A DNA stretch of 64,000 bases from the IMG/VR virus record IMGVR_UViG_3300043009_000101. One strand, written 5' to 3'. Every line of letters begins with the position of its first letter. Positions within the stretch are counted from its first letter, which is position 1. A program made the position numbers and the translations under genes. The notes below the pieces were generated by a model. It searched no databases, was not told where the DNA came from, and saw nothing but the letters and a program-made list of their open reading frames with translations. Source of the DNA: a virus (Duplodnaviria; Heunggongvirae; Uroviricota; Caudoviricetes). This document shows positions 10,170 to 59,484 of the stretch, piece by piece.

Positions 10170-10174
10170 CAACA

Positions 10175-25780: not shown

Positions 25781-25940
25781 AACTATTCCTCCTATTCATA
25801 CAATATACAAAATTATTCTGTTTTAAGTATATTGTCATATCATTTCATTCATTTGGCAAATATTACGGAAAAAATATACTATAAAACATCAAACTAAAAC
25901 AAAAGGAATGCTATAAAGCATTCCTTTCTTCTTTAACAAA

Positions 25941-43836: not shown

Positions 43837-44322
43837 TTATATAGAATTGGTGGGCTTTTGGGCAAAAATTTCAGAAGATTGGGCAAGAAAGACTTGCTGT
43901 AAAAGATTGATGATATGTGTGTAATCTTCTTGCGGGTCGATAATCATTGGTAAAGATTTAAACTGGGTTGTTTCATCGTCTACTCGCACAGATACGGGTG
44001 CATAGATGGTGAAGATGTGAGTTGTATTATCTATGACTATATTTGTGATATCAGCATAAGAGATTGTTGCAATACATTGGTCTTTTATGTCTACGATAAG
44101 TTCCGCTTCATTAAAAGTAAAACTTACGGGGATAGGTGTTGCGGCAACATGCCATTTGTAAAGAATACAGGCAAGCATAATAAGAAGAAAAAGAACAGAA
44201 TATTGCCAGCCCCAGCTTAGAAAAGCAGAGCAGATGAGAAAGAGCAAGGCAAAGGTAAAAATGTATTTGTCTAATTCTGTTCGCTTATACCAGAAGCCTG
44301 TGCTTGTTGTAGAAATAATCAT
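43837..44322 (-). CDS. Hypothetical membrane protein (2 TM helices plus soluble domain)
   Basis: ORF with hydrophobic helices. Confidence 0.5.
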   Translation of the reverse strand: MIISTTSTGFWYKRTELDKYIFTFALLFLICSAFLSWGWQYSVLFLLIMLACILYKWHVAATPIPVSFTFNEAELIVDIKDQCIATISYADITNIVIDNTTHIFTIYAPVSVRVDDETTQFKSLPMIIDPQEDYTHIINLLQQVFLAQSSEIFAQKPTNSI

Positions 44323-44394
44323 AAGAAAACCTCCGATATAATTATAGAAGATTTATGAAGAAAATTAGGGGGGATTAAAGAAAAAGAGAAAAGC

Positions 44395-44721
44395 TTAGCT
44401 TTTCTCTTTTAGAATGAGTTTGTATTTTGTATTGGTGACGGAATCGGTGAAGTTCCATTCTCCGAGCAGATAATCTTCTGGGTAGGACATGGTGATAAAT
44501 TCGCCTTGGGCATCGTACAGCTTTACGGTTGTATAGGGATACCCACGAGCTTTGGCAATGTAATCATCTGTAATCACATCAATATATGCTTCTGTTCCGT
44601 TGGAAAATGTTGTGATGTAGCTGATATCTTCACCAAGAATCTCGTAATCGGTGCGATTGCCTGAAAGAAAGTCCTCGATGATGTAGGCTTCTTCTTTTGG
44701 AATATAATAGGTTTTCTGCAT
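44395..44721 (-). CDS. Family-X single-domain protein (MQKTYYIP...YKLILKEKS)
   Basis: Conserved N-terminal MQKT-IYIP and C-terminal W.L.DP(Y/F)TK..YTLIVK-type motifs shared with at least 18 other domains in the window. Confidence 0.7.
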   Translation of the reverse strand: MQKTYYIPKEEAYIIEDFLSGNRTDYEILGEDISYITTFSNGTEAYIDVITDDYIAKARGYPYTTVKLYDAQGEFITMSYPEDYLLGEWNFTDSVTNTKYKLILKEKS

Positions 44722-44733
44722 GGCGGTATGGTA

Positions 44734-45054
44734 TTATTTAATGATAAGAATATGTTCTACATCGTTGAAGTCTTTACCAAGATTCCATCTTCCCTCAAAC
44801 TCCCGGCATGGCTCTGTTAGTTCTTCGCACCAGCCTTGGTCATCGACAAGAAGAAACTGGCAGTATGGTTTTGCTACTCCATCGTTGATTTCAACAACGA
44901 GGTAGCAAACAAAGCCGTCATCAAATTCAATCTTTTCCCAAATGTTGTCATCTGTTGTTAATCCATATTCTTCGGCAATTTCGTTGCCTGTCATACTCAG
45001 CAATTTGTGTAAGTAATCGCTGTATCCTTTTTCAAAATGTACTGTTTTCTGCAT
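44734..45054 (-). CDS. Family-X single-domain protein (start at MQKTVHF)
   Basis: Start placed at the family-consensus MQKT, 1 nt after the upstream stop. Confidence 0.65.
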   Translation of the reverse strand: MQKTVHFEKGYSDYLHKLLSMTGNEIAEEYGLTTDDNIWEKIEFDDGFVCYLVVEINDGVAKPYCQFLLVDDQGWCEELTEPCREFEGRWNLGKDFNDVEHILIIK

Positions 45055-45055
45055 A

Positions 45056-45724
45056 TTATTTTCTCTCACTTTCTGCTTTTACAATTAATGTGTATTTTGC
45101 CTTATTATATGGGTCTTGTACTGTTCTACTTCCAAGAATAGAGGAGGAACGGCGGGATACACCTATGATTAGGCCATCTACATCATACAGCAACACAATA
45201 GCAAACGGATATTTTACTGTACTGGAGTTCTCTTCCTCGGTGTCGTACCAATCTATAATAGATGTCCATACTTGAAGAGACATTTCCAAACCGTAATCAA
45301 ACTTCTTAGTGTAATATTCAGCCAGCCTCTCACCCGTAGGAAAATTACCCTTGACTGGTGTATGAAGAATACCCTCTAACTTATTTAATTCCTCGTCTGG
45401 AATATAAATCGTAAATTTTGTGGGTTCTTTCTTTGAAAGCAAGGTATAGTTGGCCTTAGTGAACGGGTCTTGTAAAGTCCACTTACCTAAGGCAGAAGAT
45501 ATAGGCTCTGTTTCGGCAATTATAGCACCGTTTGCATTTCTTAGATATACCGTGGCATAATCAGGGTCTCCTTGCCAAGTAGATAAACTCATCTCATACC
45601 CATTATCGAATACAGCTGTATGCTCATCTAAAAATTTAGCACAACTTCTTGCTTTTTGACTGATTGTTGACGATAGGTGCAAATCATACAATTCAGTTGC
45701 TCCTAGATATATTGTTTTTTGCAT
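45056..45724 (-). CDS. Family-X tandem two-domain protein
   Basis: MQKTIYLG...ANYTLLSKKE, then a second copy TIYIPDEELNKLEGILHTP...AKYTLIVKAESERK. Confidence 0.7.
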   Translation of the reverse strand: MQKTIYLGATELYDLHLSSTISQKARSCAKFLDEHTAVFDNGYEMSLSTWQGDPDYATVYLRNANGAIIAETEPISSALGKWTLQDPFTKANYTLLSKKEPTKFTIYIPDEELNKLEGILHTPVKGNFPTGERLAEYYTKKFDYGLEMSLQVWTSIIDWYDTEEENSSTVKYPFAIVLLYDVDGLIIGVSRRSSSILGSRTVQDPYNKAKYTLIVKAESERK

Positions 45725-45743
45725 TGATGTTGCCATATTCGTA

Positions 45744-46088
45744 TTATCTCTCACTTTCTGCTTTTACTATCATGTGGTAATCTTCTTTTGTATAGGGGTC
45801 TTGCAATTTCCAGTCGCAGCGAATAAAAGACAAACATTCCGTTTCTGCAAGCACATTGACATCCTCATTGTACAGAGTTGCTTTTGAATACGGATAGTCT
45901 GTGTCGCCTTCCATATTTAGAGTGGATACCCAAATGTCAAGGTACATGGTATATCCGTTGCTAAATTCTACAAAATAATAGGTATATGGCTCGAAATTAC
46001 TTACTTTACTGCTATCTGTAATTGGTGTATTTAAAAGCTTTTCTAAGCTATTTAATTCTACATCTGGAATGTATATGGTTCGTTGCAT
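45744..46088 (-). CDS. Family-X single-domain protein (MQRTIYIPDVELNSLEKLLNTP...HMIVKAESER)
   Basis: Family motifs as above. Confidence 0.7.
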   Translation of the reverse strand: MQRTIYIPDVELNSLEKLLNTPITDSSKVSNFEPYTYYFVEFSNGYTMYLDIWVSTLNMEGDTDYPYSKATLYNEDVNVLAETECLSFIRCDWKLQDPYTKEDYHMIVKAESER

Positions 46089-46187
46089 GGGTAAACCTCC
46101 TTGGTTTTTGTACCATTAGTTATACACAATTTAGAGGGAATGAAGTGCAAAAAATAATATAGATTAGGAAAGAAAGAGGTGCAGACT

Positions 46188-46808
46188 ATGAGTTGGTTAG
46201 TAAGAGAAACTTGGTATCCAGAAAAAACATCGGCAACAGAAATTTATTCCTATTTCTATGAATCTGCTTTAAATGAGTGCTGTGGCGGAAGAGAGCCGAT
46301 TATAGATAAATTACAGACATTTAAAGGCATTTGCAACAGCTATGAGGAAGCAAAAAACTATGTGCAAAGCCATATAGCTGATGATGGCTGCGGAAGAATA
46401 CAATACTATGCTCCTGTTGGTACAAATAAAAAGGCAGAAGACCTTATGCGAAGAATCAGAAAGGAACAAGAAAGTCTTCTAGCATATACCAGAGAGCATT
46501 CCGTGACAGGACAAAAAGCGGCTTATGTTTCTTGTCCGAAATGTGGCAGCAAGCTGGCTCGTGAGTATTTGGAAAGTCGAGAGACTGGCGGTTATATCAA
46601 GCTGGAAGGAGATAATGTGCTGAGCAGAAAATATGTTGCAACTTTCTGTCCAGTATGTGGTGAAGAACTTATCAGCAATACAGGGCGAGATGTAGTTGCA
46701 AGAAAGAGACAGAAAATCAAAGACTTGCGGGATGAATATGTGCAAGCAAAAAGTAAATGCAAGAAAGAAATCCGCTGGTATGTTTATATGCAAGCATACT
46801 TGGGATAG
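46188..46808 (+). CDS. Hypothetical protein with two CxxC zinc-ribbon motifs
   Basis: AAGAGGTG RBS before ATG at 46188; CPKCGSKL...CPVCGEEL; the only plus-strand gene in this island. Confidence 0.55.
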   Translation: MSWLVRETWYPEKTSATEIYSYFYESALNECCGGREPIIDKLQTFKGICNSYEEAKNYVQSHIADDGCGRIQYYAPVGTNKKAEDLMRRIRKEQESLLAYTREHSVTGQKAAYVSCPKCGSKLAREYLESRETGGYIKLEGDNVLSRKYVATFCPVCGEELISNTGRDVVARKRQKIKDLRDEYVQAKSKCKKEIRWYVYMQAYLG

Positions 46809-46883
46809 ATGTGAAAGAAGAAAAGAAGAAAAATGACAGGCTTACAGCCTGTCCTTTTTCTAGTTGGGGGTGGTGTGGCAGAG

Positions 46884-47612
46884 CTAGACAGTTTCTACGG
46901 TTAAAGTAAACTGTCCTCTGTTTTTGGTTTGCAATTCATAGAAGCCAAGAATGGTTTTTGTTTTCTCAACTGTGGCTGCTAGAATAGAATGTTCTGTGAG
47001 CAAGTCGATATGAAGCAGCGGATATTCCTCGCTGGCATGGTACTGGATATAGAAATGTGCATCTACATCCTCACCCATTTCAATTCCCTTTTCCCATAGA
47101 ATATCTCCGTCTTGGATACCCATGCTCGCAAGCATAGGAGAAGAACGAAGAAAAATTCCATCTACAAGCTTGGCTTCTTTCTTTTCAAAGCCTACTTTGA
47201 CTTCATTGCCGTATCGACTGTATTTGTAATGCTTGCTGCGAATGCCCATATACTCCATGCCTGATACTTCTTGGTCTTGCACGATGACACGGTAGTTGTT
47301 GCCAGTAATTGGTTCTTTAATGGTATATGTGCCTAGAATCGTAGATGGCTTTGGTTTTTTGGTTTTTGCAAGCAGCTGTGCAGAGGAATCGAATAGATAA
47401 GCAACAACGGAAGGCTGGTTGAAGCCTTCACTAGAACCTAAAACAATAATCTGCATGAATGTTCCGTCTGGAAATGGTACTTGATAGCTGGCTAAACCGT
47501 GAAAAGTGTCTAAGCCTACTGCTTCGAGTATTCCTGTACCGCAAGACATATATAGTGCTATATTTTCTATATCTTCCTTGGGAAGTCGAATGATTTTCTG
47601 AAAAGACTGCAT
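46884..47612 (-). CDS. Family-X related protein (242 aa; N-terminal family domain plus C-terminal extension)
   Basis: MQSFQKIIRLPKEDIENI..., VVAYLFDSSAQLLAKT..., NNYRVIVQDQE match family positions. Confidence 0.55.
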   Translation of the reverse strand: MQSFQKIIRLPKEDIENIALYMSCGTGILEAVGLDTFHGLASYQVPFPDGTFMQIIVLGSSEGFNQPSVVAYLFDSSAQLLAKTKKPKPSTILGTYTIKEPITGNNYRVIVQDQEVSGMEYMGIRSKHYKYSRYGNEVKVGFEKKEAKLVDGIFLRSSPMLASMGIQDGDILWEKGIEMGEDVDAHFYIQYHASEEYPLLHIDLLTEHSILAATVEKTKTILGFYELQTKNRGQFTLTVETV

Positions 47613-47697
47613 GAGAAAAAGCCCTCCTAAAATTTCTGTGTAATACTATATATAATAGGAAATTTGGAGAGCTTGCTTGTGTGTTGGAATATAAAAA

Positions 47698-48552
47698 TTA
47701 TTTCAATTTGTTAAGAATACCCGCTTGCAAATCATGCAGATTATACAAATGCGGAATGGAATTGAAAACATCTTGCAGAGTTTTCTTGGAGCTGAGCCAG
47801 CCGTTGCCGTCTGTGAACCAAACGAATACGGGCTGCGGATTGTCAGAAGCTGGCGGATTGGAAGTGATTTGCTGAGAAATCAGCTTGTAGCTTCTCGCTG
47901 TTTCAGAAATCTTCGAGCCGTGGGTGGCATAGAAATTGGTTTCGATTAGGTAGATATGCTTGTTGCGAACTAGTGCAAAATCGAATTTCTTTGTTGTGAG
48001 GTAAGATAAATCTAAACCAAACTGTTTCTTTAAGAATGGAAGGGTTGGTTCTTTGAAATAATCTTTATTTGGAAGAAGGTGGGAAGATGTGAAATAGGAT
48101 TCGACAATTTCTTCCATCTTGTTTCCACTTCGGTTCTTACGGGCATTGGTATCTAATCCAACTTCGATACCCAGTGCATAATCGTAAAGATTGTGAATGT
48201 TGTGGTTTTGCAGCATGTCAAACAAACCAGTTTCTTTCATGAACTCTATGTAATCTTCGGTGGTATTTACTGTATTGATATTGTCGAAGTCGAACTGCTT
48301 TGCCTGAACGGAAAGCTGGCTGGTGCGAATTGCAAGAAGATACGGTATCACTTTGAGTGATTGCGGATAGGTTTCGCAGATATATCGGAAATCTTGCTCG
48401 ATGTTGGAACTGCCAATTAGGGAGTTTAGAAGATTGAGTTCCACTTTGTACTGAGCAAGATGCTCGTAAACTTTGTTGAAATCGACAAAATAATCATAGG
48501 TGGCTAAGTTTGGTGTGAATGTTGCTAACCATTCGTTGAAATCCCTTTCCAT
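47698..48552 (-). CDS. Type II restriction endonuclease, DpnII/MboI family
   Basis: FNEWL...KVY...LNSLIGSSNIEQDF...IYLIETNFY..GSKISETARSYKLI...HLYNLHDLQAGILNKLK matches my recollection of R.DpnII end to end; AAGGAGG RBS. Confidence 0.7.
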   Translation of the reverse strand: MERDFNEWLATFTPNLATYDYFVDFNKVYEHLAQYKVELNLLNSLIGSSNIEQDFRYICETYPQSLKVIPYLLAIRTSQLSVQAKQFDFDNINTVNTTEDYIEFMKETGLFDMLQNHNIHNLYDYALGIEVGLDTNARKNRSGNKMEEIVESYFTSSHLLPNKDYFKEPTLPFLKKQFGLDLSYLTTKKFDFALVRNKHIYLIETNFYATHGSKISETARSYKLISQQITSNPPASDNPQPVFVWFTDGNGWLSSKKTLQDVFNSIPHLYNLHDLQAGILNKLK

Positions 48553-48649
48553 AGAAATCCTCCTTAAAAAACTTTCTAGGTATATTGTAGCAAGGAGGAG
48601 GGTTGAGTGATGTTGGAACGGGTGGCTAGTGGCTAGTGGTTAGACTGAG

Positions 48650-49639
48650 CTAGATGAGATTCTCGTCTAGAAACTGCATCAATTCTTTTGCTACTGCATA
48701 CACAACATCTACAGTAACAGCATTGCCAAACTGCTTATATGCCTGAGTGTCGGATACAACTTGCTGCCAATCACTTGGGAAACCTTGCAGCTTTCTCGCT
48801 TCATTTGGTGTCAGTCTGCGAATATTCGTTTTAGTTTCATCACAATACCGTTCATAATTCACATTATCCGTATAATAATTGTCTTGGCTTGCTCTGTGCA
48901 TTTTGTGCATAGTTGCAACTAAGGTGTTGCAAATCTTATTATCTATTGTTGGCTCAGCCTTAAAGTTTTTCGTTCCCTCGCTCATAAGTGCTTTGATAAG
49001 TACTTTGCTGACAAAATACTTGGCAGGAACATCTTCATCAAGCAAATCTTGTGCAGTCAACTGCAATGGCTGGGTCTGTGGCTGTGGGAAAGCAAACTGT
49101 GTATCTTTAAAAGCATCTTTTCGCAAAGCTACAATAAATACCCGCTTCCTTCTTTGTGGAATGCCAAAATCTGCTGTATTCAGAACTTGATAATTTACTG
49201 CATACCCGCATTCTTCGAGTTCGTCTTTGATTCTTTGGAATGTCTTGCCTTTGTCGTGTGTAACAAGGTTCTTTACATTTTCCAAAACAACTGCTTTGGG
49301 ATGATGCTTGAGTATAATGCTCTTAATAATAAAGAACAATGCCCCTCTGCCTTTTTCATCCTCAAAACCTTGCCTTTTGCCAATACTAGAAAATGGCTGG
49401 CATGGAAATCCGCCAACTAAAATGTCGTGAGGCGGAATTTCATCTAAATGCTCTGTAATATCTCCTTCTACAATGTCTGTGCGAATGTTGGCTCGAAATG
49501 TCTGGCATGCATATTTGTCTATGTCATTGGACCAAACCATATCAAAGCCTGCATTGGAAAAGGCTAAATCAAATCCGCCAATGCCTGCAAAAAGGCTCAC
49601 TGTTTTGTATTTGTAAGTTGTATGTGTAATTCTTTCCAT
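48650..49639 (-). CDS. DNA (cytosine-5)-methyltransferase (M subunit of the adjacent DpnII-like endonuclease)
   Basis: FAGIGGF, GGFPCQPFS, ENV motifs; immediately upstream of the endonuclease on the same strand. Confidence 0.9.
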   Translation of the reverse strand: MERITHTTYKYKTVSLFAGIGGFDLAFSNAGFDMVWSNDIDKYACQTFRANIRTDIVEGDITEHLDEIPPHDILVGGFPCQPFSSIGKRQGFEDEKGRGALFFIIKSIILKHHPKAVVLENVKNLVTHDKGKTFQRIKDELEECGYAVNYQVLNTADFGIPQRRKRVFIVALRKDAFKDTQFAFPQPQTQPLQLTAQDLLDEDVPAKYFVSKVLIKALMSEGTKNFKAEPTIDNKICNTLVATMHKMHRASQDNYYTDNVNYERYCDETKTNIRRLTPNEARKLQGFPSDWQQVVSDTQAYKQFGNAVTVDVVYAVAKELMQFLDENLI

Positions 49640-49757
49640 TGAAAAACCTCCTGTATATTGTAGATTTTTTCTGTTGGACGGAATGATGCAGGGTTTCGTT
49701 TGGTGCTATGAAATATGCAAAAAAAAGATACCCTTGGGTATCTTGCTGAGGTGAAAA

Positions 49758-50096
49758 TTAGGTTCTTACTTTTACATTTACGGTATAATGCTCACCTTCG
49801 ATGCCTTCCAAAGTCCAAGACTTGAAGAAATCTTCTTCCCAATTGCTTTCATCTACAAGCTGGTCATCTGCATCGAGATTGTACAGCACGGCTCTTGCCC
49901 ATTGTTTCAGGCCGCCGGGTGCAACGATAAGTTCTATGTCCATAATGTAAGTATGTGGGAATTCCACGGATTCGGTATAGGCAACTCCGTCTTGCAAACC
50001 GTATTTGGTGAAAACTTCTTCACTGGTAGAATCTAAAATATCATTAATTTTTCTGGCTGTTTGCTTTGGTACATATACTGTCTTTTCTGGCATGGC
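49758..50096 (-). CDS. Family-X single-domain protein (start at MPEKTVYVPKQ, AAGGAGG RBS)
   Basis: The track ORF is longer (192 aa), but the RBS and family N-terminus put the start at 50096; C-terminus YTVNVKVRT. Confidence 0.65.
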   Translation of the reverse strand, partial: AMPEKTVYVPKQTARKINDILDSTSEEVFTKYGLQDGVAYTESVEFPHTYIMDIELIVAPGGLKQWARAVLYNLDADDQLVDESNWEEDFFKSWTLEGIEGEHYTVNVKVRT

Positions 50097-50419
50097 TTGT
50101 TCCTCCTTGTGCTTATTAAAGCTACAACTATTATAGAAAAATTGAACGGGCGAAAACGAGAAACAGATGAAGATGCGGGTGCGACAAATCGGGGAATATG
50201 GAACGGGTATAGAGAGTTGGAACAAGATAATTGTGGGCGGAAATAGGTTGAGGGAAGATTTAGCTAAAACAAAAAGGCGAAATGTAGCTATCCGTAGGAT
50301 AGGTCGCATTTCGCCTGTAATATTATATTGAAACAAATTCTGCTGAGTGCAGTGAATACTAGTATAAGACTACTAGTGCTAGTGAAATACCCAAGCTGGC
50401 TATATGGCTGGTGAGGGGC

Positions 50420-50863
50420 TTACAGAGTGATTTGCAGCAACACTTTCTTGCGATTGGGTGTGATAAAATGCTGGGTTATCGTAAAGCCAAAGTACTCGCT
50501 GAAAAAATCATATGCATCGCCTTTGGGCAATGGTTCAAACGGTATTGGTTCAAAGGTCAAAGTATCATAGTCGAAAGTGTATGCTCCATCTGTCAGATGC
50601 TCCGCCAATTCCTGTGCTTCTGCTAGTGTGAGAGATATGTATTGTCGCATCGGCATCTGGTGGCAGCGATTGGAGTAACAGCCGGGGTTGATTTGCAAGG
50701 CGGCTGGGTGTAGGGAAAAGTTTTCTATGGTAAAATCATAGAAATCTTTTAGATAAACTATCTTTGCTTTCTTCGTGCGGGCTTTGGTTTTGGATAAGAT
50801 GTAGGCAAAAGATTCTGGGTTTGGAAAAATGACGGAAACAACCTCGTAGCCGTATCGTTTCAT
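50420..50863 (-). CDS. Hypothetical protein (147 aa)
   Basis: AAAGGAG RBS before MKRYGYEVVSV; no motif recognised. Confidence 0.5.
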   Translation of the reverse strand: MKRYGYEVVSVIFPNPESFAYILSKTKARTKKAKIVYLKDFYDFTIENFSLHPAALQINPGCYSNRCHQMPMRQYISLTLAEAQELAEHLTDGAYTFDYDTLTFEPIPFEPLPKGDAYDFFSEYFGFTITQHFITPNRKKVLLQITL

Positions 50864-50953
50864 ATGAGGGAACTCCTTTCGTTGCATATTCTATACATAG
50901 TATAGGAGTTTTAAAAGAATATTGCTAGAGAAGAGTTCTGTTGGAGCATTGTA

Positions 50954-51316
50954 TTATTGCAGCTGCTTGCGGTATTGGGTATATGAAACAATCCAGAGGA
51001 ATACGAGCAATAAGGCTTCCAGCTGGTAGAACATATAATATAGAGTAAAGAAATCATAGGATGTGGCTAGTGTGGTGATAAGGCAAAGTGCGAGTAATAC
51101 CGTAAGGCAATCTGTAGTGAGATGACGAAGCTGATGCTTGTAGGAGGAATTACTCTTGTACATACAGAACAGCAAAATACCAATATCTGCAAGTAAAGTG
51201 AAAATGGTGAATGCACTGCTTCTGCTGGAAATAGAAAGCCATGGGCAGCTGATGAATGCAATAGATATGGCTGTGATTAGAAAGATGCGGCTGAAGATAA
51301 TGTTGCATTTAGACAT
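50954..51316 (-). CDS. Hypothetical small membrane protein (about 4 TM helices)
   Basis: AAAGGAG RBS before MSKCNIIF; the upstream part of the track ORF is translated repeat DNA. Confidence 0.4.
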   Translation of the reverse strand: MSKCNIIFSRIFLITAISIAFISCPWLSISSRSSAFTIFTLLADIGILLFCMYKSNSSYKHQLRHLTTDCLTVLLALCLITTLATSYDFFTLYYMFYQLEALLLVFLWIVSYTQYRKQLQ

Positions 51317-51472
51317 GGTTTGGGTTAGTTCTCCTTTGCTTAGATAATATAGATATAGTTTATCACGAGCAATAGGAAATCTGGGACGGAACGGAGAGTT
51401 TGGTGCAGATAGGTTTGGGGCAAGATAGGGTTGGGTGCAGATAGAACTAGGGCAAGATAGAGCTGAAACAAG

Positions 51473-51582
51473 AAAAGGCACGAGGCTTGGTCGGACGGGA
51501 TAAATCCCTTGAACAAGGGATTTATCAAAATAGGGAAGCATATGCTTCCCTATTTTAGTCAGTCCGAGGTTTCGTGCCTTTA
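51473..51582. repeat. Composite hairpin element (family A) with two nested inner hairpins
   Basis: aaaaggcacgagg...gggataaatccctt-gaac-aagggatttatc...tagggaagca-tatgcttcccta...ccgaggtttcgtgccttt. Confidence 0.55.
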
Positions 51583-51584
51583 AT

Positions 51585-52313
51585 CTATTTTTCTTTCTTA
51601 AAATTCTTAGATATTACTGCATTAAATTGCTGCGGGTCGAACCAATAGCAGCCATTACAAACCTTGGTGTGTTCATCACCAAAAATATAGCTCTCGGAGT
51701 ACCCTAGCTGCTTAGCATCATATCGTATGCCTGATTCTCTGCATTCTTTACAATGTTGTCGCTTAGCTATATTTACTGCTTTGCTAAGTACTTGGAAATC
51801 TTCCAATTTTTGTTCGTTTGGATTCTCGTTTTCTCTATCATCATATCTACCGTTCTTATGGTCTATTTCCATACCGTTACTGGATATTATATCTAATACT
51901 GCACAGTGCTTGCCTTTAAGTGCTTTCTGCACATCTGTAGAAATGGTACGGGCAGATTTTGTTCGATTCTTATTGAAGCCATCTAATTTTACAGAAGCTA
52001 CTCTTGGGCCTTTCTTCGTTCTTGTAATTAAATATCGTTTACCTAGATAAGAAACAGAATCTCTAGCCCAAGTACAACCATTGGTTGTTTCAAAACTAGA
52101 ATGTATTGTTTTGAGATATTCTATACTGAGCTTCTTGCCAATACCATACTCCACATCAGATAATATTTCAAAAATCTGGCCAAGATATGCAGAAGTTAGG
52201 TGTATATCTTGCAAATTTGTCTGCACATAGGTAATTAGAGCTTGTTTATCTTGTTGCTGAAAAAGAAGTTCAAGTTGTGCAATCTGTGTTTCGTTTAAGT
52301 CCTTCATATGCAA
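51585..52313 (-). CDS. HNH-family endonuclease (candidate type II restriction endonuclease)
   Basis: EIDHKNGRYDD...NPNEQ...HCKEC (HNH/His-Me core) plus CxxC pairs; 6 nt downstream of the C5-methyltransferase gene. Confidence 0.65.
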   Translation of the reverse strand: MHMKDLNETQIAQLELLFQQQDKQALITYVQTNLQDIHLTSAYLGQIFEILSDVEYGIGKKLSIEYLKTIHSSFETTNGCTWARDSVSYLGKRYLITRTKKGPRVASVKLDGFNKNRTKSARTISTDVQKALKGKHCAVLDIISSNGMEIDHKNGRYDDRENENPNEQKLEDFQVLSKAVNIAKRQHCKECRESGIRYDAKQLGYSESYIFGDEHTKVCNGCYWFDPQQFNAVISKNFKKEK

Positions 52314-52319
52314 ATTTCC

Positions 52320-53516
52320 CTATCCCACATATTCGAAAGTAAACAATTTCTCAAAAATACGAACCATTACAGGCACAACAATAGAATTACCAAACTGTTT
52401 GCGGGCTTTGGAATCAGATTGCACAGATAAAATCTTCGTAATATTTTCCTCTGAAACACCCATTAGTCTGCCGAATTCTTTTACAGATAATTTACGGACA
52501 TTGCCTGTGGCATCAATTACAGCAGTTACAGTATTGTGGTTCTCTTTAATCGTAGGAACAATACCGTTGATGCTCACTATCTTGCTGGAATCGAACTTAC
52601 TCTTCATATAATTGCCTAAGGAAACAATACTATTAAACCGTTCTAGTTGGTTTATGAAATCTGTATCTTTATACTTTTCTGCACAGCTTTTAGCATACTC
52701 GTTGTGAATATATAATCTGGATTCAGGCTGAATGTCTGTATCTAAATAATCCCGCAAATATTTTGTAAGCGAAATCGGTTCAGGAAAAGTGTACGGAGTT
52801 GGATGATTTAGAATACTCACCATATAGCACCGTTCCCTATTCTGTGGTATATTTCCATATTCTGCTGCATTCAGAACCTGATACGAATTTGTATACCCGA
52901 TTGATTCCAAATAAGCACACCAATCATCAAAATCTGCTTTGTTTCGCTTGGAAATGATTTGCTTTACATTTTCCATAAACAGAATCTGCGGAAGTTCTTT
53001 CCGTGAAGCAATCAATTCGTTGAACAACCTTTCAATTTCCCAAAGCAAACCGCTCCTCGTACCACTGCCTTTTTTCATGCCTCGCAAATTCCCACTCATA
53101 GACAAATCTACACAAGGAAAACTGTATGTGAGCATGTAAGTATAAGTTTCTGTGTTGGTGATACCCAGTTCTTCTGCCTGTATTCTTGTGATACTGCCAA
53201 GGTTGTGTGTGGCTGCAAATTCGTTGTAAACTTTTCTGCACCAAGGTTCTTTTTTCTTCAACAATGCTTCTTTGCTTAATGCCTGTTTGTCGTCTATGGT
53301 GATTTGCAAGTTGGCAAGATAGTTCACCACTTCTTCGAAACTGAGATTGGCAGATGCATCTGGTATGACTTCGGTATGCACGGCTGCATACGATGTGTTG
53401 GCTGCTACATTCCATTCAGATATGCGGTAATGCTCGTAATCTATATCTAATTGGTCTAGTGCCATTGCTTGGCTGCCATAGCCTGCAAATAGTTCTATTA
53501 ATCTTACTTTCTTCAT
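52320..53516 (-). CDS. DNA (cytosine-5)-methyltransferase with variant motif I
   Basis: LFAGYGS (motif I), SFPCVDLS (PC), FMENV; 398 aa. Confidence 0.85.
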   Translation of the reverse strand: MKKVRLIELFAGYGSQAMALDQLDIDYEHYRISEWNVAANTSYAAVHTEVIPDASANLSFEEVVNYLANLQITIDDKQALSKEALLKKKEPWCRKVYNEFAATHNLGSITRIQAEELGITNTETYTYMLTYSFPCVDLSMSGNLRGMKKGSGTRSGLLWEIERLFNELIASRKELPQILFMENVKQIISKRNKADFDDWCAYLESIGYTNSYQVLNAAEYGNIPQNRERCYMVSILNHPTPYTFPEPISLTKYLRDYLDTDIQPESRLYIHNEYAKSCAEKYKDTDFINQLERFNSIVSLGNYMKSKFDSSKIVSINGIVPTIKENHNTVTAVIDATGNVRKLSVKEFGRLMGVSEENITKILSVQSDSKARKQFGNSIVVPVMVRIFEKLFTFEYVG

Positions 53517-53584
53517 GCATATTCCCTTTCTCTATGTTTAGATTAACATAGTGGAAATGGAAAACTGGTTGGAACAGATGGTTG

Positions 53585-53715
53585 GGTGCAGATAGTACTG
53601 ACACAAGATAGTACTGCCACAAGATAGTACTGCCACAAGATAGTACTGCCACAAGATAGTACTGCCACAAGATAGTACTGCCACAAGATAGTACTGCCAC
53701 AAGATAGTACTGCCA
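53585..53715. repeat. Tandem repeat, 18 bp x about 7 (ccacaagatagtactg...)
   Basis: Directly visible; translated artefact ORFs cover it. Confidence 0.95.
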
Positions 53716-53718
53716 CAA

Positions 53719-53769
53719 GAAAAGGCACGAAGTCCGGTGAATGTAATGAACCGAGGTCTCGTGCCTTTT
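53719..53769 (-). terminator. Family-A hairpin acting as a terminator for the upstream 3-gene array
   Basis: aaaaggcacgaagtccggtgaatgtaatgaaccgaggtctcgtgcctttt; on the minus strand the stem is followed by TTTTCTTG. Confidence 0.55.
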
Positions 53770-53781
53770 ACTTACTGAATA

Positions 53782-54159
53782 TTATTTTGTTGTTTTTACC
53801 TTTACGGTATAGGAATTCAGAACAGTATTTCCAAACTCGTCTGTGGATACATCTTCGAACTGGTACTCATCGAAAAAATCTAAATCGGATTGGTAAGATA
53901 ATTCCACGGAATCGTCTTCTGTACGATAGAATACCGCAAGAATATCTGGATAGGCGGAAGCATCATCTGGCACAATAATTTTAATCTGGGCATAATGTCC
54001 GTCAGCAAATTTTGCTTCGTAAAGTTCTTCCTCATACCGATGCATGCCGTATTTATTATAGATTTGCTCGCCTGTGCTGTTGAGTAAGTTCTTTACTGAC
54101 TTAGTTTCGGCGGGTGTGAGTTTGATTGTTGATGTGTATTTATGTGCATATTTAGGCAT
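53782..54159 (-). CDS. Family-X (subfamily 2) protein, MPKYAHKYTSTIKLT...NSYTVKVKTTK
   Basis: First of three tandem paralogues. Confidence 0.65.
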   Translation of the reverse strand: MPKYAHKYTSTIKLTPAETKSVKNLLNSTGEQIYNKYGMHRYEEELYEAKFADGHYAQIKIIVPDDASAYPDILAVFYRTEDDSVELSYQSDLDFFDEYQFEDVSTDEFGNTVLNSYTVKVKTTK

Positions 54160-54168
54160 TGGGACGGT

Positions 54169-54582
54169 TTACTTCTCCTTTTCTGTATATGGCTTTATTC
54201 TGACTGTATATAGATTGCGAGCGGGATTGCCCGTGGATTCCGTGGTATCTAGCTCAAATACCCAGTTCCCAAAGAAATAGGATTCTTCACCCGTTAGAGA
54301 CTGATAGTCCAGCGGGCTGTCTGTATCTGTGGGAAGATAAAATTCTGCTTCTGTATATGGTGCATACATGTCTAAGCTGGGTGAATTCAGAGAAATGACA
54401 GCAATATGCCCGTCTGTGAATGTGGCTTGGCATTGATACAATACGGTACGATATGTGCCGTTGTAGAGGGTATCTATCTGCTCGTCTGTGAGATTTTCCC
54501 AGTCTAGTATTTCTTGGACTAGGTTCGTATCTTCTTTGCTTAACTTGATTGTTGCTTGATATTTGTGAAGATATCTTGACAT
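54169..54582 (-). CDS. Family-X (subfamily 2) protein, MSRYLHKYQATIKLS...LYTVRIKPY
   Basis: Tandem paralogue. Confidence 0.65.
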   Translation of the reverse strand: MSRYLHKYQATIKLSKEDTNLVQEILDWENLTDEQIDTLYNGTYRTVLYQCQATFTDGHIAVISLNSPSLDMYAPYTEAEFYLPTDTDSPLDYQSLTGEESYFFGNWVFELDTTESTGNPARNLYTVRIKPYTEKEK

Positions 54583-54587
54583 AGTTT

Positions 54588-54989
54588 TTATTCGTCTCCG
54601 AAAGGCTTTACAATAGCCGTATACAGATTTACAACAGGTTCGCCGTTGGCATCGGTTGTTTCTACTTCAAACTTCCAATCTTGAATTATATAAGGATATG
54701 GACTTGTTGCAATTTTGGAATCCGTGACAATACCATTTCTTATTGCATAAAAATGTGCTTCACCATAGATTACAGAACCAAACTGTGTGGCACAAAGGGA
54801 AACATCTGCAATATGCCCATCACGAAACTTCAATCTGCAAGAATACAATACTAATTTATCTGTTGCCTGCTGCATAGGTGCAAGCTGCTCTGCTGTTAAA
54901 TTCTCGGGCTTATTCACAAAAAGCATATAGTTAGAATCTGCTTCACTCAGCTTGATTGTAGATTGATATTTATGAAGATATTTTGGCAT
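54588..54989 (-). CDS. Family-X (subfamily 2) protein, MPKYLHKYQSTIKLS...LYTAIVKPF
   Basis: Tandem paralogue. Confidence 0.65.
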   Translation of the reverse strand: MPKYLHKYQSTIKLSEADSNYMLFVNKPENLTAEQLAPMQQATDKLVLYSCRLKFRDGHIADVSLCATQFGSVIYGEAHFYAIRNGIVTDSKIATSPYPYIIQDWKFEVETTDANGEPVVNLYTAIVKPFGDE

Positions 54990-55061
54990 GGTAAGAATCG
55001 CCTCGCTTTCACTTTATACAATAGATATAGAAAATTTGGGTGAGTGGGAGTGAAAAAAAAA

Positions 55062-55502
55062 TCAGAGCTTGTATGCATCTTGATTTCTATGCGGGATACC
55101 CAGATGAAGCTGATGCATCAAATGTTCTCTGTGGGCATGCAGCCGCTGCTCGTAAATCTGTCTGTGGGTGTCTATCTCGGACGGAATGATATGCTGGTCT
55201 GCATTGAGTGCTACCTTTGTACTGGAACTGGAGAGGGCGGTTTCTAAGGTATAAATCGCTGCTGCTGTAATGGTGATGTCCACTCTGGCTTGCATAGAAT
55301 ATCGCATGGCTGTTTCCAGCTTGCATGTAATCTTGCCAAATCGAAACAAGCCTGTGGTTAGATTAATATCGAAATCTGTGCAAGCTATCAGTCTGTTATG
55401 GCTGAGTATATAGGCTGTGCCACCTTGCTTGCCGAGATAGACAAGGGATGGTCCGTATTCGAATATGTCTGGTTTGATGATGTCTCCTACTTGCAGTCGC
55501 AT
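55062..55502 (-). CDS. Hypothetical protein (146 aa, GC-rich) sitting between two paralogue arrays
   Basis: AAAGGAG RBS; about 50% GC against about 36% for its neighbours. Confidence 0.5.
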   Translation of the reverse strand: MRLQVGDIIKPDIFEYGPSLVYLGKQGGTAYILSHNRLIACTDFDINLTTGLFRFGKITCKLETAMRYSMQARVDITITAAAIYTLETALSSSSTKVALNADQHIIPSEIDTHRQIYEQRLHAHREHLMHQLHLGIPHRNQDAYKL

Positions 55503-55639
55503 GATGGCTCCTTTCTGGGTTGTATGTAATTATATTGGTTTCTTGATTGTAAAGAAAGTATAGCACGAAAAGAGAGGTGTGGTAAAGGTGGAAAAGGAAA
55601 CAAAAAAGGAACAGCTGTTGGCTGTTCCTTTTTTTGTAA

Positions 55640-56419
55640 TTATTCTGCTATTCCAATCTGGAAATGGAAAGGTTCCTTAGAATCCTCTTTTACTTTTGTA
55701 AATTCATAATCACCCAAGATATTTGCAGAAGGATAGTCCTCGGAAGCCATATGATATGCAACCTGTTCCACTGCGTCCACATTGTCGTCTACATAGTATA
55801 GCAACTGTATTTGTACATAAGGATAATATTCAGCACGATTTGCTTCAATAGAAATTCTTAAATACCGATAGCCAGTAGAATCTATTACTATATTTTCTTG
55901 CCACAATGTTTTTGTTTCTTCTGTATTATCTGAATTACCTGAGAAACAAATACTTGTAGGTGTTTTAAGTAATAAATTTAGCTTTTGTACAACAGTTTTT
56001 GGCATACAAAATTTATTATCTCCAGAATAGTAGAAAGCATAGAAAACAGGCAAGTTGAAAGTGTTGCAAACATAACCCTTTGTATTTGGACTAATCCATC
56101 CTTTACAATTATCATCTAAGATTAAAGTATAGGTGTCTTGTGTATAAGGGTCTTTTACTACATATTTTCCAAGAAAATCTTCATGGGGTGTACTCATATC
56201 CAACATATTGGAATTTTCGTCATACAATACGGCTGCATAAGCAACATATTCATCTTCACCCGGGTCATAAGGTGTTACAACTACTGTAAAACCCGTTGGG
56301 AATTGCCAGCTTTTAGCCACAAGAGGTGCATATTTAGTGAAATCACAGGCTTCCATCCATTCTATATGCAGCCTGTGCATTCTTGGATTTAAATGTAATG
56401 TTTTTTGGTAATTTTGCAT
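55640..56419 (-). CDS. Family-X (subfamily 3) two-domain protein, MQNYQKTLHLNP...
   Basis: N-terminal domain ...LGKYVVKDPYTQDTYTLILDDN; second domain begins ...MPKTVVQKLNLLLKTP. Confidence 0.7.
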   Translation of the reverse strand: MQNYQKTLHLNPRMHRLHIEWMEACDFTKYAPLVAKSWQFPTGFTVVVTPYDPGEDEYVAYAAVLYDENSNMLDMSTPHEDFLGKYVVKDPYTQDTYTLILDDNCKGWISPNTKGYVCNTFNLPVFYAFYYSGDNKFCMPKTVVQKLNLLLKTPTSICFSGNSDNTEETKTLWQENIVIDSTGYRYLRISIEANRAEYYPYVQIQLLYYVDDNVDAVEQVAYHMASEDYPSANILGDYEFTKVKEDSKEPFHFQIGIAE

Positions 56420-56442
56420 AGTGTATTTTCTCCTTTATTTAA

Positions 56443-57195
56443 TTAGTCTGTTGTTCCGATATAGAAATTATAGAAATCTGGTAAGCAATAGCCTTGCTCA
56501 TTTGCAAGTTCATATGCCCCAAGTATATTTGCAGGTTTATTTTCTGTGGTTTTATGTGCTGTAGCTTTATGTGTACCAAATTGGCCTTTATCACCATCTG
56601 GGCCATCTGGTGTCAACAACTGAAGTAATACATAGGGATAATTCTCGTTACGGTCTGCTTCAATAGTCATTCTCAGATACCAATACCCGTCAGCATCAAC
56701 GGTTACATTCTTTTCCCACAAAATTTTATTTTTACTAGTTAGTTTACCGTGGGCTTCAACTGGTGTTTGCAGTAGGATATTCAACTTGTTTACTTCACTC
56801 TTTGGCATATACAGCTGCTCAAACAAACCAGTAGTGTCCCCTTTCAAAGCATAACCTTCGGTGTTGAATGTAATCCAATCCTTACAATTATTATCAAGAA
56901 TTAAGGTATAAACATCTTGTGTATACGGATTTGTAACTGTATATTTACCAAGATAATCTGTATGTGTTTCACTCATATTGATGAGATTGGAATTAGCATC
57001 CCAAAGATATGCGACAAAACCTACATTATTATCATTTGTTCCAAAAACACTTACTTGCATTATCAGACCTGTTGGAAACTGGTAACTTTGTACAAAATAA
57101 GAGGCTACATATTCTACATAATCTTGGCTTAGTGCATATAAAGCAGAAAGCACATCTGTTGGTTTTAAATGTAATGTTTTTTGATATTTTTGCAT
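56443..57195 (-). CDS. Family-X (subfamily 3) two-domain protein, MQKYQKTLHLKP...
   Basis: AAAGGAG RBS; LYMPKSEVNKLNILLQTPVEAHGKL second domain. Confidence 0.7.
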   Translation of the reverse strand: MQKYQKTLHLKPTDVLSALYALSQDYVEYVASYFVQSYQFPTGLIMQVSVFGTNDNNVGFVAYLWDANSNLINMSETHTDYLGKYTVTNPYTQDVYTLILDNNCKDWITFNTEGYALKGDTTGLFEQLYMPKSEVNKLNILLQTPVEAHGKLTSKNKILWEKNVTVDADGYWYLRMTIEADRNENYPYVLLQLLTPDGPDGDKGQFGTHKATAHKTTENKPANILGAYELANEQGYCLPDFYNFYIGTTD

Positions 57196-57217
57196 AAAAA
57201 GTTTCTCCTTTATTTAA

Positions 57218-57937
57218 TTATTCTGTTGTTCCGATATAGAAATCTGTAGGTAAATCCACATCAGATATATTCATAAGTTCATATGCACCAAGAATATTTG
57301 CGGGTTTATTCTCGGTTGCTTTATTTGTACCAACTTGGTACTCATCGCCATCGAGTGTCAGCACCTGAAGTTGTACATAAGGATAATACTCTGTACTGTC
57401 TGCTTCAATAGAGATTCTCATATACCAATATCCTTCATTGTCAACAGTTACATTTCTTTTCCACAAAGTTTTAGATTTACTCATTAGTTTTCCGTGAGCT
57501 TCAACTGGTGTTTGCAACAAGATATTTAGTTTCTGTACTTCACTCTTTGGCATATACAGATGCTTGCACCAATCTTTGTTCCATTTTAAAACATATCCCG
57601 TTGTGTTTGGAGTAATCCAACCCTTACAATTATCATCAAGAATCAAGGTATAAACATCTTGTGTATAAGGATTTGTAACTGTATATTTACCGAGATAATC
57701 TGTATGTGCATCGCTCATATTGATGAGATTTGAATTAGCATCCCAAAGATATGCCACAAAGCCTACATTATTATCATCAGCACTAAACACACTTACCTGC
57801 ATTATGAGACCTGTGGGAAACTGATAGCTTTGTGCTAAGTCAGGAGCTGCCGTTAAAGTAGATTCCCTTATGTCTTTATTCAAATCGTATAGCACATTGA
57901 GTGGGCTTAAATGCAATGTCTTTTGATATTTTTGCAT
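57218..57937 (-). CDS. Family-X (subfamily 3) two-domain protein, MQKYQKTLHLSP...
   Basis: Same architecture, about 80% identical to its neighbours. Confidence 0.7.
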   Translation of the reverse strand: MQKYQKTLHLSPLNVLYDLNKDIRESTLTAAPDLAQSYQFPTGLIMQVSVFSADDNNVGFVAYLWDANSNLINMSDAHTDYLGKYTVTNPYTQDVYTLILDDNCKGWITPNTTGYVLKWNKDWCKHLYMPKSEVQKLNILLQTPVEAHGKLMSKSKTLWKRNVTVDNEGYWYMRISIEADSTEYYPYVQLQVLTLDGDEYQVGTNKATENKPANILGAYELMNISDVDLPTDFYIGTTE

Positions 57938-57954
57938 AAAAAGTTTATTCTTTC

Positions 57955-58686
57955 TTACTTTTCAGTTGTTCCGATATAGAAATCTGTTAGTAAATCAGAC
58001 TCATAGTTTTCACTAAATTCATATACACCAAGAATATTTGCAGGTTTATTCTCAGTTGCTTTATGTACACCAACTTGAGCTAATAAATCATCCGCACATA
58101 GCACTTGAAGTTGTACATAAGGATAATCCTCTGTAATATCTGCTTCAATAGACATAATCATATAATAAAATCCTTCCATATCAATAGGTACATACCTTTC
58201 CCACAAAGTTTTATTTGTATGAGTTAGTTTACCATGAGCTTCAACTGGTGTTTGTAGCAATATGTTCAGTCTGTGTACTTCACTCTTGGGCATATATAGC
58301 TGTGTACACATAGTTGCATGGAAAGCATTATAGTTCACAACATACCCTTCTGTGTTTGTAGTAATCCACCCCTTGCAATTATCATCAAGAATCAAGGTAT
58401 AAACATCTTGTGTATAAGGATTTGTAACTGTATATTTACCAAGATACTCTGTATGAACATCACTCATATTGATGAGATTGGAATTAGCATCCCAAAGATA
58501 TGCTACGAAACCCAAGGTAGTGTTATCAGAACTACACACACTTACTTGCAATATAAGACCTGTTGGAAACTGATAACTTTGTACTAAATGTCTTGCTGCA
58601 TCCGCAGCATTATCAATTTGGCCATTATTTAAAACAAAGAGTACTCCGCGGGGATTTAAATGTAATGTTTTTTGGTAAGTTTGCAT
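57955..58686 (-). CDS. Family-X (subfamily 3) two-domain protein (start at MQTYQKTLHLNP)
   Basis: GGAGAAAGGAA RBS before ATG at 58686 (the track ORF starts 24 codons earlier). Confidence 0.7.
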   Translation of the reverse strand: MQTYQKTLHLNPRGVLFVLNNGQIDNAADAARHLVQSYQFPTGLILQVSVCSSDNTTLGFVAYLWDANSNLINMSDVHTEYLGKYTVTNPYTQDVYTLILDDNCKGWITTNTEGYVVNYNAFHATMCTQLYMPKSEVHRLNILLQTPVEAHGKLTHTNKTLWERYVPIDMEGFYYMIMSIEADITEDYPYVQLQVLCADDLLAQVGVHKATENKPANILGVYEFSENYESDLLTDFYIGTTEK

Positions 58687-58949
58687 ATTATATTCCTTTC
58701 TCCATTTATTATCATTTATTATATTGAGGAATGCTTGTACCATTAGATACTGATACACACCTCTTAAATTATAAGAAATTCCTACTAAGATAATTGAAAA
58801 AATATCTAAGTGCTGTATTCATAATACTAGATAAAAACTGTTGCAAGCAAATTGGCTGCAAGTACAGGCTGCACAATTTCGGAATACCCGTTGCATTCAT
58901 GCTTACATATTCTTTTGGTGTGCCTACACTCATTTCTAGAAATAGGTCA

Positions 58950-59445: not shown

Positions 59446-59451
59446 AAACTA

Positions 59452-59484
59452 TACAAAGAAAAGGCACGAGATACCGTGCCTTTA
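59452..59484 (-). terminator. Rho-independent terminator for the gene at 59488..59850
   Basis: aaggcacg-agatac-cgtgcctt, with a TTTTCTTTG tail on the minus strand. Confidence 0.6.

Follow-up and report, generated by a model that had tools for sequence, protein, structure and literature searches.

Several kinds of described system resemble the locus reported here. Anti-restriction and DNA-mimic proteins (Ocr, ArdA, Arn, Ugi and similar) are small, strongly acidic, non-enzymatic and cytoplasmic, and are encoded with methylases in the accessory regions of mobile elements. Phage anti-defence clusters, i.e., anti-CRISPR loci and Thoeris/CBASS sponge genes, hold small unannotated genes on one strand in variable regions, and show cassette-like movement between unrelated phages. 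Polymorphic-toxin immunity arrays consist of tandem divergent paralogues of a compact α+β domain. In the lineage-specific multigene families of large viruses, one fast-diverging small-protein family lies in tandem under purifying selection.

The locus lies in a 64-kb stretch of viral DNA, which is called the window below. Its likeness to the large-virus families extends to the very large size of the element, and is one of analogy only, without homology. Anti-defence clusters described so far place different families side by side, whereas a single family has been amplified here (PMC7648647 and general knowledge). Also unlike those clusters, the arrays have no identified Aca-type regulator next to them, and no named family was matched.

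The window contains 19 copies of one ~105-130-aa domain in 13 minus-strand genes spanning 44395-58686 (ORF listing, all-against-all BLASTP, MAFFT and HMM scan), and HMM scans of all six-frame ORFs found no 20th copy in the rest of the window. JGI gene calls for an identical contig give the same gene set. The family genes are as follows.

44395-44721, 44734-45054, 45744-46088, 49758-50093, 53782-54159, 54169-54582 and 54588-54989, minus strand: the seven single-domain genes
45056-45724, 46884-47612, 55640-56419, 56443-57195, 57218-57937 and 57955-58686, minus strand: the six two-domain genes
55640-58686, minus strand: array A, four tandem paralogues (57955-58686, 57218-57937, 56443-57195, 55640-56419) by BLASTP, with two domains each by HMM
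53782-54989, minus strand: array B, in which three paralogues of one domain each (54588-54989, 54169-54582, 53782-54159) share the N-terminus MPKYLHKYQSTIKL, by ORF listing, BLASTP and HMM
49758-50093, minus strand: single-domain gene closing the run with the IceA-family pair (BLASTP; profile A2, E 1.1e-20)
46884-47612, minus strand: two-domain gene, 86 nt 3' of the DpnII-family gene (BLASTP, HMM)
44395-46088, minus strand: array D, 45744-46088 (one domain), 45056-45724 (two), 44734-45054 (one) and 44395-44721 (one), by ORF listing, BLASTP, MAFFT and HMM

Pairwise BLASTP identity is 43-69% among the array A paralogues and 32-41% within array B, whose members match profile A1 at E about 1e-24 to 5e-28 and profile A2 at E 6e-5 to 5e-18. 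The gene at 46884-47612 resembles array A genes over its full length (BLASTP, E 3e-14). The gene has been amplified by tandem duplication in this element, and fusion into two-domain genes has happened at least twice. A first-pass annotation had recognised one shared architecture and tight packing on one strand, and the counts above and the intra-array gaps (short overlaps up to 23 nt) agree with it. It had started the island at 43837; that start is too early, since 43837-44322 is an unrelated gene, and the arrays run from 44395. The ending KAESER(K), which it ascribed to many genes, occurs in two only (45744 and 45056), and its motifs F.NGY.M.L.IW and DPYTK..YTLIVK describe the 44395-46088 subgroup; the signature of the family as a whole, given below, is weaker.

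The 13 diverged genes fall in four gene runs, each with a terminator-like hairpin at its end, and the Type II restriction-modification pairs of the element itself are found in two of these runs. Upstream of the array ATGs are conserved Shine-Dalgarno-like sequences; in array A, the ribosome-binding site and its spacing are kept as repeats D2-D10. The hairpins, repeats and other genes are listed here.

55602-55634, minus strand: intrinsic-terminator-like hairpin directly 3' of array A (14-15 bp stem, then T run)
49725-49744: terminator-like hairpin after 49758-50093
46835-46853: terminator-like hairpin after 46884-47612
44382-44410: terminator-like hairpin overlapping the last stop codon of array D
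53590-53720, no strand: 8.2 copies of a 16-nt unit repeated in tandem (99% identity), in the gap separating array B from the methylase gene
51398-51470: degenerate relative of the 16-nt tandem repeat
58900-59448, no strand: three direct repeats of ~185 nt in non-coding DNA that precedes array A (no Rfam match, no consensus fold)
47698-48552, minus strand: DpnII-family restriction endonuclease (Pfam PF04556, E 3.9e-92, full-length)
48650-49639, minus strand: C5 cytosine DNA methyltransferase, paired with the DpnII-family nuclease (Pfam PF00145, E 5.2e-93)
51585-52313, minus strand: IceA/NlaIII-family restriction endonuclease (Pfam PF05315, E 4.7e-31)
52320-53516, minus strand: C5 cytosine DNA methyltransferase, paired with the IceA-family nuclease (Pfam PF00145, E 4e-50)
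40135-41343, minus strand: third C5 methyltransferase, without an adjacent nuclease (Pfam PF00145, E 2.4e-65)
41548-43527, minus strand: NAD-dependent DNA ligase LigA, flanking the island
46179-46808, plus strand: Zn-ribbon protein, divergent from array D (zinc-ribbon Pfam matches)

The DpnII-family nuclease and its methylase are adjacent full-length family matches, 97 nt apart on the same strand, and the IceA/NlaIII-family genes are adjacent at 6 nt. As predicted from sequence, two complete Type II restriction-modification pairs therefore lie between family genes. The DpnII-like pair is as first annotated; the other nuclease had been called HNH and is IceA-family by Pfam, its pairing with a methylase being correct. 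The orphan methyltransferase and ligA, which had been placed between the arrays, are both present and both fall outside 43837-58686.

The family extends beyond the window. A profile search of 1.84 billion representatives returned 393 matches at E<=1e-3 (31 at E<=1e-10), mostly ~105-115-aa single-domain proteins. Profile A2, built from 38 homologues that all come from outside the window, matches all 13 window genes (E 6e-5 to 1e-20), and because recognition is reciprocal, we consider the family real and beyond chance. About a dozen of the best 150 matches are SdrD_B/CarboxypepD_reg repeat proteins that align only to profile positions 60-108, so the true family is somewhat smaller than 393. These giant surface proteins score about 10 bits per repeat, and share with the C-terminal half of the domain a pattern of roughly L-Y-D-x-x-G ... 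G-x-W-x-L ... Y-T-L-x-V. We rejected a prealbumin-like β-sandwich identity for the family, as no match is full-length and the modelled topology is β-α-β6. The multi-copy homologues P0010 and P0012 consist of this domain and unannotated sequence only.

As the first-pass annotation suspected, the family has no name: Pfam, PHROGs, NCBIfam and PADLOC gave no match to the domain (Pfam hmmscan cut-offs: E<=1 for window proteins, E<=0.01 for homologues), nor does any solved structure match it by sequence. Profile searches matched no housekeeping domain, and no LPD Pfam model (large-polyvalent-protein domains, Iyer et al. 2017) matched.

Its predicted fold is well defined and has no significant match among characterised proteins. 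Two independent AlphaFold models (pLDDT 90.9 and 97.5) agree on a small α/β topology, β1-α1-β2...β7, and significant fold matches are limited to three phage proteins in BFVD, all uncharacterised. The family-wide signature (45744 numbering) is F42, G45, Y65-P66, L72, L90-G91-W/Y93 and Y104. No column is invariant, conserved positions are mostly hydrophobic or aromatic, Gly or Pro, and majority polar positions are limited to Q2, K3, T4, K9, T100 and T105; the domain therefore looks non-enzymatic. Residues of the hydrophobic core and of a few turns are kept; variation lies in helix α1, the loop that follows it and other loops. The domains are acidic (pI 4.3-5.6 in the window, mean 4.4 outside it) and cytoplasmic.

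Among the youngest paralogues (array A), dN/dS is 0.29-0.37, so the genes are functional. Local maxima of 0.7-1.06 fall in helix α1 and its loop and in the C-terminal loop, and since no dN/dS window is clearly above 1, diversifying selection is not demonstrated. The family had been called expanding; tandem expansion is evident, under purifying selection overall, and close copies of the locus are all 100% identical, giving no population-level sign of turnover.

The element that carries the locus is very large and phage-like and belongs to gut-type bacteria, with contigs up to 577 kb. It has affinities with phages because LigA is closest to human-faecal phage contigs and Clostridium phage c-st, and its RNA ligase shares 36% identity with the enzyme of a 217-kb Bacillus phage. 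The 64-kb window has no capsid, portal or terminase gene, none of ten further window ORFs matched Pfam, and the element's large proteins gave no phage match. Its identity as a phage, rather than a phage-plasmid or another kind of element, is putative.

Our preferred reading of the domain, at a probability of roughly 40%, is a binding scaffold without enzymatic activity, whose copies multiplied to serve in host takeover or counter-defence; that they interfere with host defences is our best guess, not a result. A conserved core would carry a variable α1 and loops, and the paralogues would inhibit host proteins or serve as decoys for them, nucleases of host defence or other immune factors being the likeliest targets, with expansion giving a repertoire of differing specificities. 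The methylases, restriction enzymes, RNA ligase/kinase pair and LigA may be further parts of the same conflict toolkit. An anti-restriction or decoy family, as the first-pass annotation suggested among other options, is compatible with all findings and is the option we prefer. More speculative is the specific form of this idea, in which the domain would be an inhibitor scaffold of new structure, so far overlooked, with which gut Firmicutes phages counter host immunity. Each of the 19 repertoire members would then have its own target among host nucleases and immune sensors, and gene amplification, not a diversity-generating retroelement, would have produced this viral "binder library".

Known anti-restriction families (ArdA, ArdB/KlcA, ArdC, Ocr) gave no Pfam or NCBIfam model match and no fold similarity to a solved member, and no characterised anti-restriction, anti-CRISPR or sponge protein is similar by sequence or fold. 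Many phage proteins of unrelated role are likewise acidic, small and encoded in accessory regions, which counts against the counter-defence reading.

Homologues are almost confined to metagenomic, phage-like contigs, largely of gut-type Clostridia phages. In every context examined the surroundings are phage-like, and the family gene is single-copy among runs of small unannotated genes. Its neighbours include Bro-N/ANT, GP88, LPD29, DUF3846, YopX, DUF4314, dNK, Thy1, RNR and a GH108 lysin, as well as N6 methylase, R.HinP1I, GmrSD_N, NADAR and LigA. LPD29, found near the family gene in locus L008, belongs to a set of domains known from conflict proteins of phages and plasmids (PMC5512222). In phage contig MT835533, a homologue of the Zn-ribbon protein is encoded 1.2 kb away from the family gene (pairwise E 9e-8). 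Between MT835533 and a Eubacterium MAG contig, the family gene is the sole shared segment (833 bp, 87.5% identity), and its position differs among the related phages L032, L036 and L037; on these comparisons it behaves like a mobile cassette.

Variable position and cassette-like transfer are typical of dispensable accessory genes, not core functions, which makes it rather unlikely that the paralogues have some other phage-internal role (packaged internal protein, scaffold, or replication/transcription regulator) with an expansion unlinked to host immunity. No structural-gene neighbour was seen in any homologue context. Large phages commonly carry lineage-specific paralogue families, which we count for such a role, as we do the repeat arrays inside the island, which are candidate protein-binding sites. 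LigA is also nearby in four contexts (the window; L010 and L032/33, within about 10 kb; and MT835533, on the same contig), but its co-occurrence may just reflect phage relatedness.

It is improbable that the paralogues modulate the element's own restriction-modification, holding nucleases or methylases in check (e.g., so that cutting is delayed until element DNA is methylated), or belong to an island for superinfection exclusion or defence that the element carries. Nineteen copies far exceed the need of two nucleases, and arrays A and D, with 13-14 of the 19 domains, have no restriction-modification gene, although family genes do share gene runs with both pairs: no terminator is predicted in the 86 nt between the DpnII-family gene and 46884-47612, and 49758-50093 closes the IceA-family run. 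The first-pass annotation's module co-localising with restriction-modification did not hold up elsewhere: methylases or nucleases are near the single-copy gene only in some loci (L010, L032/33, L036, L037), whereas L008 has no restriction-modification gene called within 10 kb and L031 only a weak Methyltransf_32 match. Counting for modulation, an N6 methylase lies directly downstream of the gene in L037, and R.HinP1I is 4 kb away in L010. The association with defence-type genes is thus loose. PADLOC defence models matched none of four family proteins and none of four of the five other unnamed island proteins, the fifth (the Zn-ribbon protein) having marginal matches only (E about 2e-3).

Immunity against polymorphic toxins (T7SS/LXG, Rhs or CDI type) as a stockpiled orphan array, an analogy drawn by the first-pass annotation from the one-strand tandem layout of divergent small paralogues, which does fit, is largely refuted and very improbable, since homologues are single-copy in phage-like contigs, no LXG, WXG100, Rhs, CdiA-type or other toxin/trafficking domain was found by Pfam in the island or beside eight homologue loci, and no Pfam Imm or SUKH immunity family matched (window proteins E<=1, homologues E<=0.01).

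What is new is a protein family absent from Pfam, PHROGs and NCBIfam, with no solved structural relative, in a very large mobile element that has two predicted complete restriction-modification systems inside the same gene runs. If its role proves to be an ordinary phage-internal one, this would be a lineage-specific paralogue expansion of modest interest. If the counter-defence reading is true, the locus would offer for screening 19 natural variants of one confidently modelled scaffold, together with about 380 relatives, nearly all metagenomic, and thus material in which to look for new inhibitors of bacterial immune systems, restriction enzymes included. It would also be a model for how a virus may broaden specificity by gene amplification.

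In the window, a domain of about 105–130 residues is present 19 times, spread over thirteen genes that all lie on the minus strand (44395–58686; ORF listing). All-against-all BLASTP joins all 13 into one family, E values ranging from 1e-119 (youngest pairs) to about 1e-4 (most distant pairs), and a MAFFT alignment shows the 19 domain pieces to be colinear along their whole length. A family HMM searched against every six-frame ORF finds exactly 19 domains in the window and none beyond, and JGI gene calls on an identical contig concur with this gene set. The first-pass annotation had claimed at least 19 copies of one ~110-aa domain, and all three methods bear out that count. Two-domain architecture occurs in six of the genes. 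Four of these (array A, 55640–58686) align over their full length with a fifth, 46884–47612 (E 3e-14), which shows a two-domain ancestor common to all five. In the sixth, 45056–45724, each half is nearest to the neighbouring single-domain gene 45744–46088 (36% identity each), so domain fusion took place at least twice. The two-domain genes suggest a dimeric unit.

The domain had also been described as unrecognised, and this holds: the window proteins and ten distant homologues have no credible match in Pfam, PHROGs, NCBIfam or PADLOC. Profiles built from the window domains and from 38 homologues outside the window give only chance-level matches to PDB sequences. AlphaFold2 predicts a confident fold from either alignment (window: pLDDT 90.9, pTM 0.83; outside: pLDDT 97.5, pTM 0.87). 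The order of elements is alike in both models, i.e., β1, α1 and then a six-stranded antiparallel run, and the outside-member model has an extra short second helix after α1. Foldseek, proposed earlier as a check, finds no PDB match at E ≤ 1e-3, and its only significant matches in BFVD are to three uncharacterised phage proteins.

No column of the alignment is invariant, and neither the window alignment nor the outside one contains a conserved stretch of 7–10 residues. Of the positions kept in at least half of the 19 copies, most hold core hydrophobic or aromatic residues, Gly or Pro; the exceptions are Q2, K3, T4, K9, T100 and T105. Variability is highest in the loop following α1, in the loop joining β3 to β4 and across β4–β6. 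Every window copy is acidic (pI 4.3–5.6); outside members have a mean pI of 4.4 and a mean net charge of −13. Translations of the window family genes show no apparent signal peptide or membrane segment. Among the three youngest paralogues (56443–58686), dN/dS is 0.29–0.37, so the family genes are maintained by selection, and local maxima of 0.7–1.06 fall on the α1 helix with its loop and on the last loop. This pattern fits a scaffold with variable surfaces; it does not demonstrate positive selection. In the first domain of the same three genes, synonymous divergence drops from about 0.55 to 0.14–0.26 over alignment columns 61–100 (β4–β7), which suggests gene conversion between neighbouring copies.

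Only a profile search run exhaustively over 1.84 billion cluster representatives reached relatives; it returned 393 proteins at E ≤ 1e-3, of which 31 reach E ≤ 1e-10. Given the window alignment, a word-indexed protein search recovered solely the element itself, on contigs of up to 576,898 bp. The profile of the 38 outside members recognises every window gene, so the relationship is reciprocal. Most homologues are single-domain proteins of 100–120 residues, and some (P0010, P0012, P0015 and P0017) have two to four domain copies. A few carry added sequence, in which the only recognisable partners are the uninformative Phage_ProQ_C_like (P0027) and DUF5983 (P0057). About a dozen of the top 150 hits are giant surface proteins of SdrD_B/CarboxypepD_reg repeats, which we rejected as members: their match is confined to the C-terminal half of the profile and scores about 10 bits for each repeat, so we treat the resemblance as motif-level. 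Curated collections contain hardly any family members. With a central family member, tblastn finds one match in INPHARED, an unannotated human-faecal phage record, and no plasmid match in PLSDB; with one window domain, it finds no match in phage and plasmid collections. GTDB species representatives hold one matching contig, from an uncultured Eubacterium MAG of the human gut. No phage record matches the 39 kb of window sequence searched by Megablast, and 19 IMG/VR loci retrieved via LigA contain no family copy.

A terminator-like hairpin lies behind each array, so the island reads as four gene runs, which we infer to be transcription units. The hairpins, all on the coding strand, are:

55634–55602, coding strand: terminator-like hairpin after array A
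49744–49725, coding strand: terminator-like hairpin
46853–46835, coding strand: terminator-like hairpin
44410–44382, coding strand: terminator-like hairpin after array D (44395–46088)

Sigma-70-type promoters are not enriched in a scan (42 sites versus 52 expected). The first-pass annotation had interleaved several enzymes with the arrays. Pfam supports the two nuclease/C5 methylase pairs, one DpnII-family and one IceA/NlaIII-family, within the island; the third C5 methylase and the NAD-dependent LigA lie just outside the island as it had been drawn. Two of the four gene runs hold family genes plus a restriction-modification pair; the family genes are physically interleaved with two restriction-modification systems. 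In the pair at 47698–49639, the DpnII-family nuclease is partnered by a C5-cytosine methylase. The characterised DpnII/MboI systems known to us use N6-adenine methylases, so the window system may differ in its specificity or methylated base.

Several non-coding repeats accompany these genes. Just upstream of the methylase gene 52320–53516, 53590–53720 holds 8.2 tandem copies of the 16-nt unit AGATAGTACTGCCACA (99% identity), and a degenerate relative lies at 51398–51470, upstream of the membrane-protein ORF at 50954. The motif AAGAAAAGGCACGA adjoins both sites, which are possible operator or iteron arrays, and also occurs within the terminator hairpin 59456–59478. Three direct repeats of about 185 nt (58900–59448; mean column identity 79%) fill 700 nt of non-coding DNA upstream of array A with its four genes. 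Tested as RNA, the repeats match no Rfam family and show no conserved secondary structure, and the window has no further occurrence of their core motifs; a candidate fourth copy at 43563 was not confirmed. Divergent from the adjacent array D is a Zn-ribbon gene (46179–46808, +), with a homologue at 6297–6785 of the phage record MT835533 (pairwise E 9e-8), 1.2 kb from the family gene there, and none in the remaining homologue contexts. The other island genes without an assigned family have no homologue in these contexts, nor among solved-structure sequences. Where the locus recurs in several JGI and SRA samples, its copies agree at 100% identity over stretches of up to 20 kb, except for one 98-bp deletion variant; this sole variant copy, the metagenome contig L005, misses 46336–46433, inside the Zn-ribbon gene.

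Most genes of the window belong to no recognised family, and no tRNA or virion genes are seen in it. Its other recognisable features include:

In the window: RNase T/polymerase-exonuclease-like protein
In the window: NfeD/Band_7 protein
In the window: transglutaminase-like protein
10122–10392: HEARO RNA, full-length match upstream of the IscB-type gene (82.3 bits, 0.7 below the Rfam gathering score; E 2.6e-16)
10482–11834, plus strand: IscB-type gene (RRXRR + HNH, 450 aa)
14616–16852, minus strand: Rnl1-type RNA ligase (PF09511) and 310-aa polynucleotide-kinase-type kinase, overlapping by 7 nt
17927–31103, minus strand: four consecutive very large ORFs (1119, 741, 764 and 1720 aa)

The stretch 10122–11834 (+) looks like a complete IscB/omega-RNA unit. 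RNA ligase/kinase pairing is typical of phage tRNA-repair genes, which counter anticodon nucleases. Three of the four very large proteins match divergent InlB-type B repeats. The large window ORFs have no phage match; for the 1720-aa ORF, the phage collection offers no relative. At 17257–17398, downstream of neither gene's coding region but in the space separating the RNA-ligase gene from that of the first giant surface protein, staggered self-matches reveal a 15-nt tandem repeat. LigA is nearest to human-faecal phage contigs (~43%) and Clostridium phage c-st (38%), and the RNA ligase to a 217-kb Bacillus phage (36%). These affinities favour a phage of very large size, or a phage-plasmid, from gut-type Firmicutes; with no virion gene seen and no phage match for the large ORFs, this assignment is provisional and its evidence indirect. 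Candidate hosts are Eubacterium and other Clostridia represented by MAGs from the same samples.

We surveyed eight homologue loci on contigs of 25–99 kb. In all eight, the family gene sits among co-directional runs of small genes, mostly without assigned function, and those neighbours that can be recognised are of phage or mobile-element type: Bro-N/ANT, GP88, LPD29, DUF3846, YopX, DUF4314, dNK, Thy1, ribonucleotide reductases, GH108 lysin, N6 methylase, R.HinP1I, GmrSD_N, NADAR, Rep3 and LigA. The context of the four-copy protein P0012 has no gene with a recognisable function. LigA is within about 10 kb of the family gene in the window, L010 and L032/33; in MT835533 the two genes share a contig. 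This co-occurrence may reflect phage relatedness only. The position of the family gene varies among four related phages (80–95% DNA identity). MT835533 and a Eubacterium sp. UMGS1550 contig have no DNA in common except a family gene encoding 276 aa (833 bp, 87.5% identity), which implies recent horizontal transfer of this single gene. The varying position and this isolated sharing show that the family gene behaves as a mobile accessory cassette. The 19-fold local expansion in the window is unique among the loci sampled.

The family is therefore real and phage-associated, and no solved structure is related to its confidently predicted fold. Our preferred reading, at a probability of roughly 0.4, is that the domain is non-enzymatic and would work through binding, most likely interfering with host proteins, probably defence factors, and that the paralogues would cover different targets. 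We prefer it because of the family's acidic nature, cassette-like mobility, location in accessory regions and conflict-related surroundings. Large phages commonly have lineage-specific paralogue families and clustered small accessory genes, and this locus resembles them; what is unusual here is the degree to which one unnamed, structurally unmatched domain is amplified, and that it shares gene runs with restriction-modification systems. Some other phage-internal role is unlikely. A role in controlling the nucleases that the element itself encodes, or in defence or exclusion, is more doubtful still; the suggestion that the family co-localises with restriction-modification genes was not borne out consistently beyond the window, as methylases or nucleases are close to some of the eight homologue loci and not all. 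Toxin immunity, put forward by analogy with polymorphic-toxin loci, is highly improbable, since toxin and secretion-system genes are absent from all eight loci, where the family gene is single-copy. The probability left over is assigned to no named reading. Returning to binding-based interference with host proteins, the locus is not yet evidence for a new kind of system, and it is well suited to anti-defence screening and to a description of the family.
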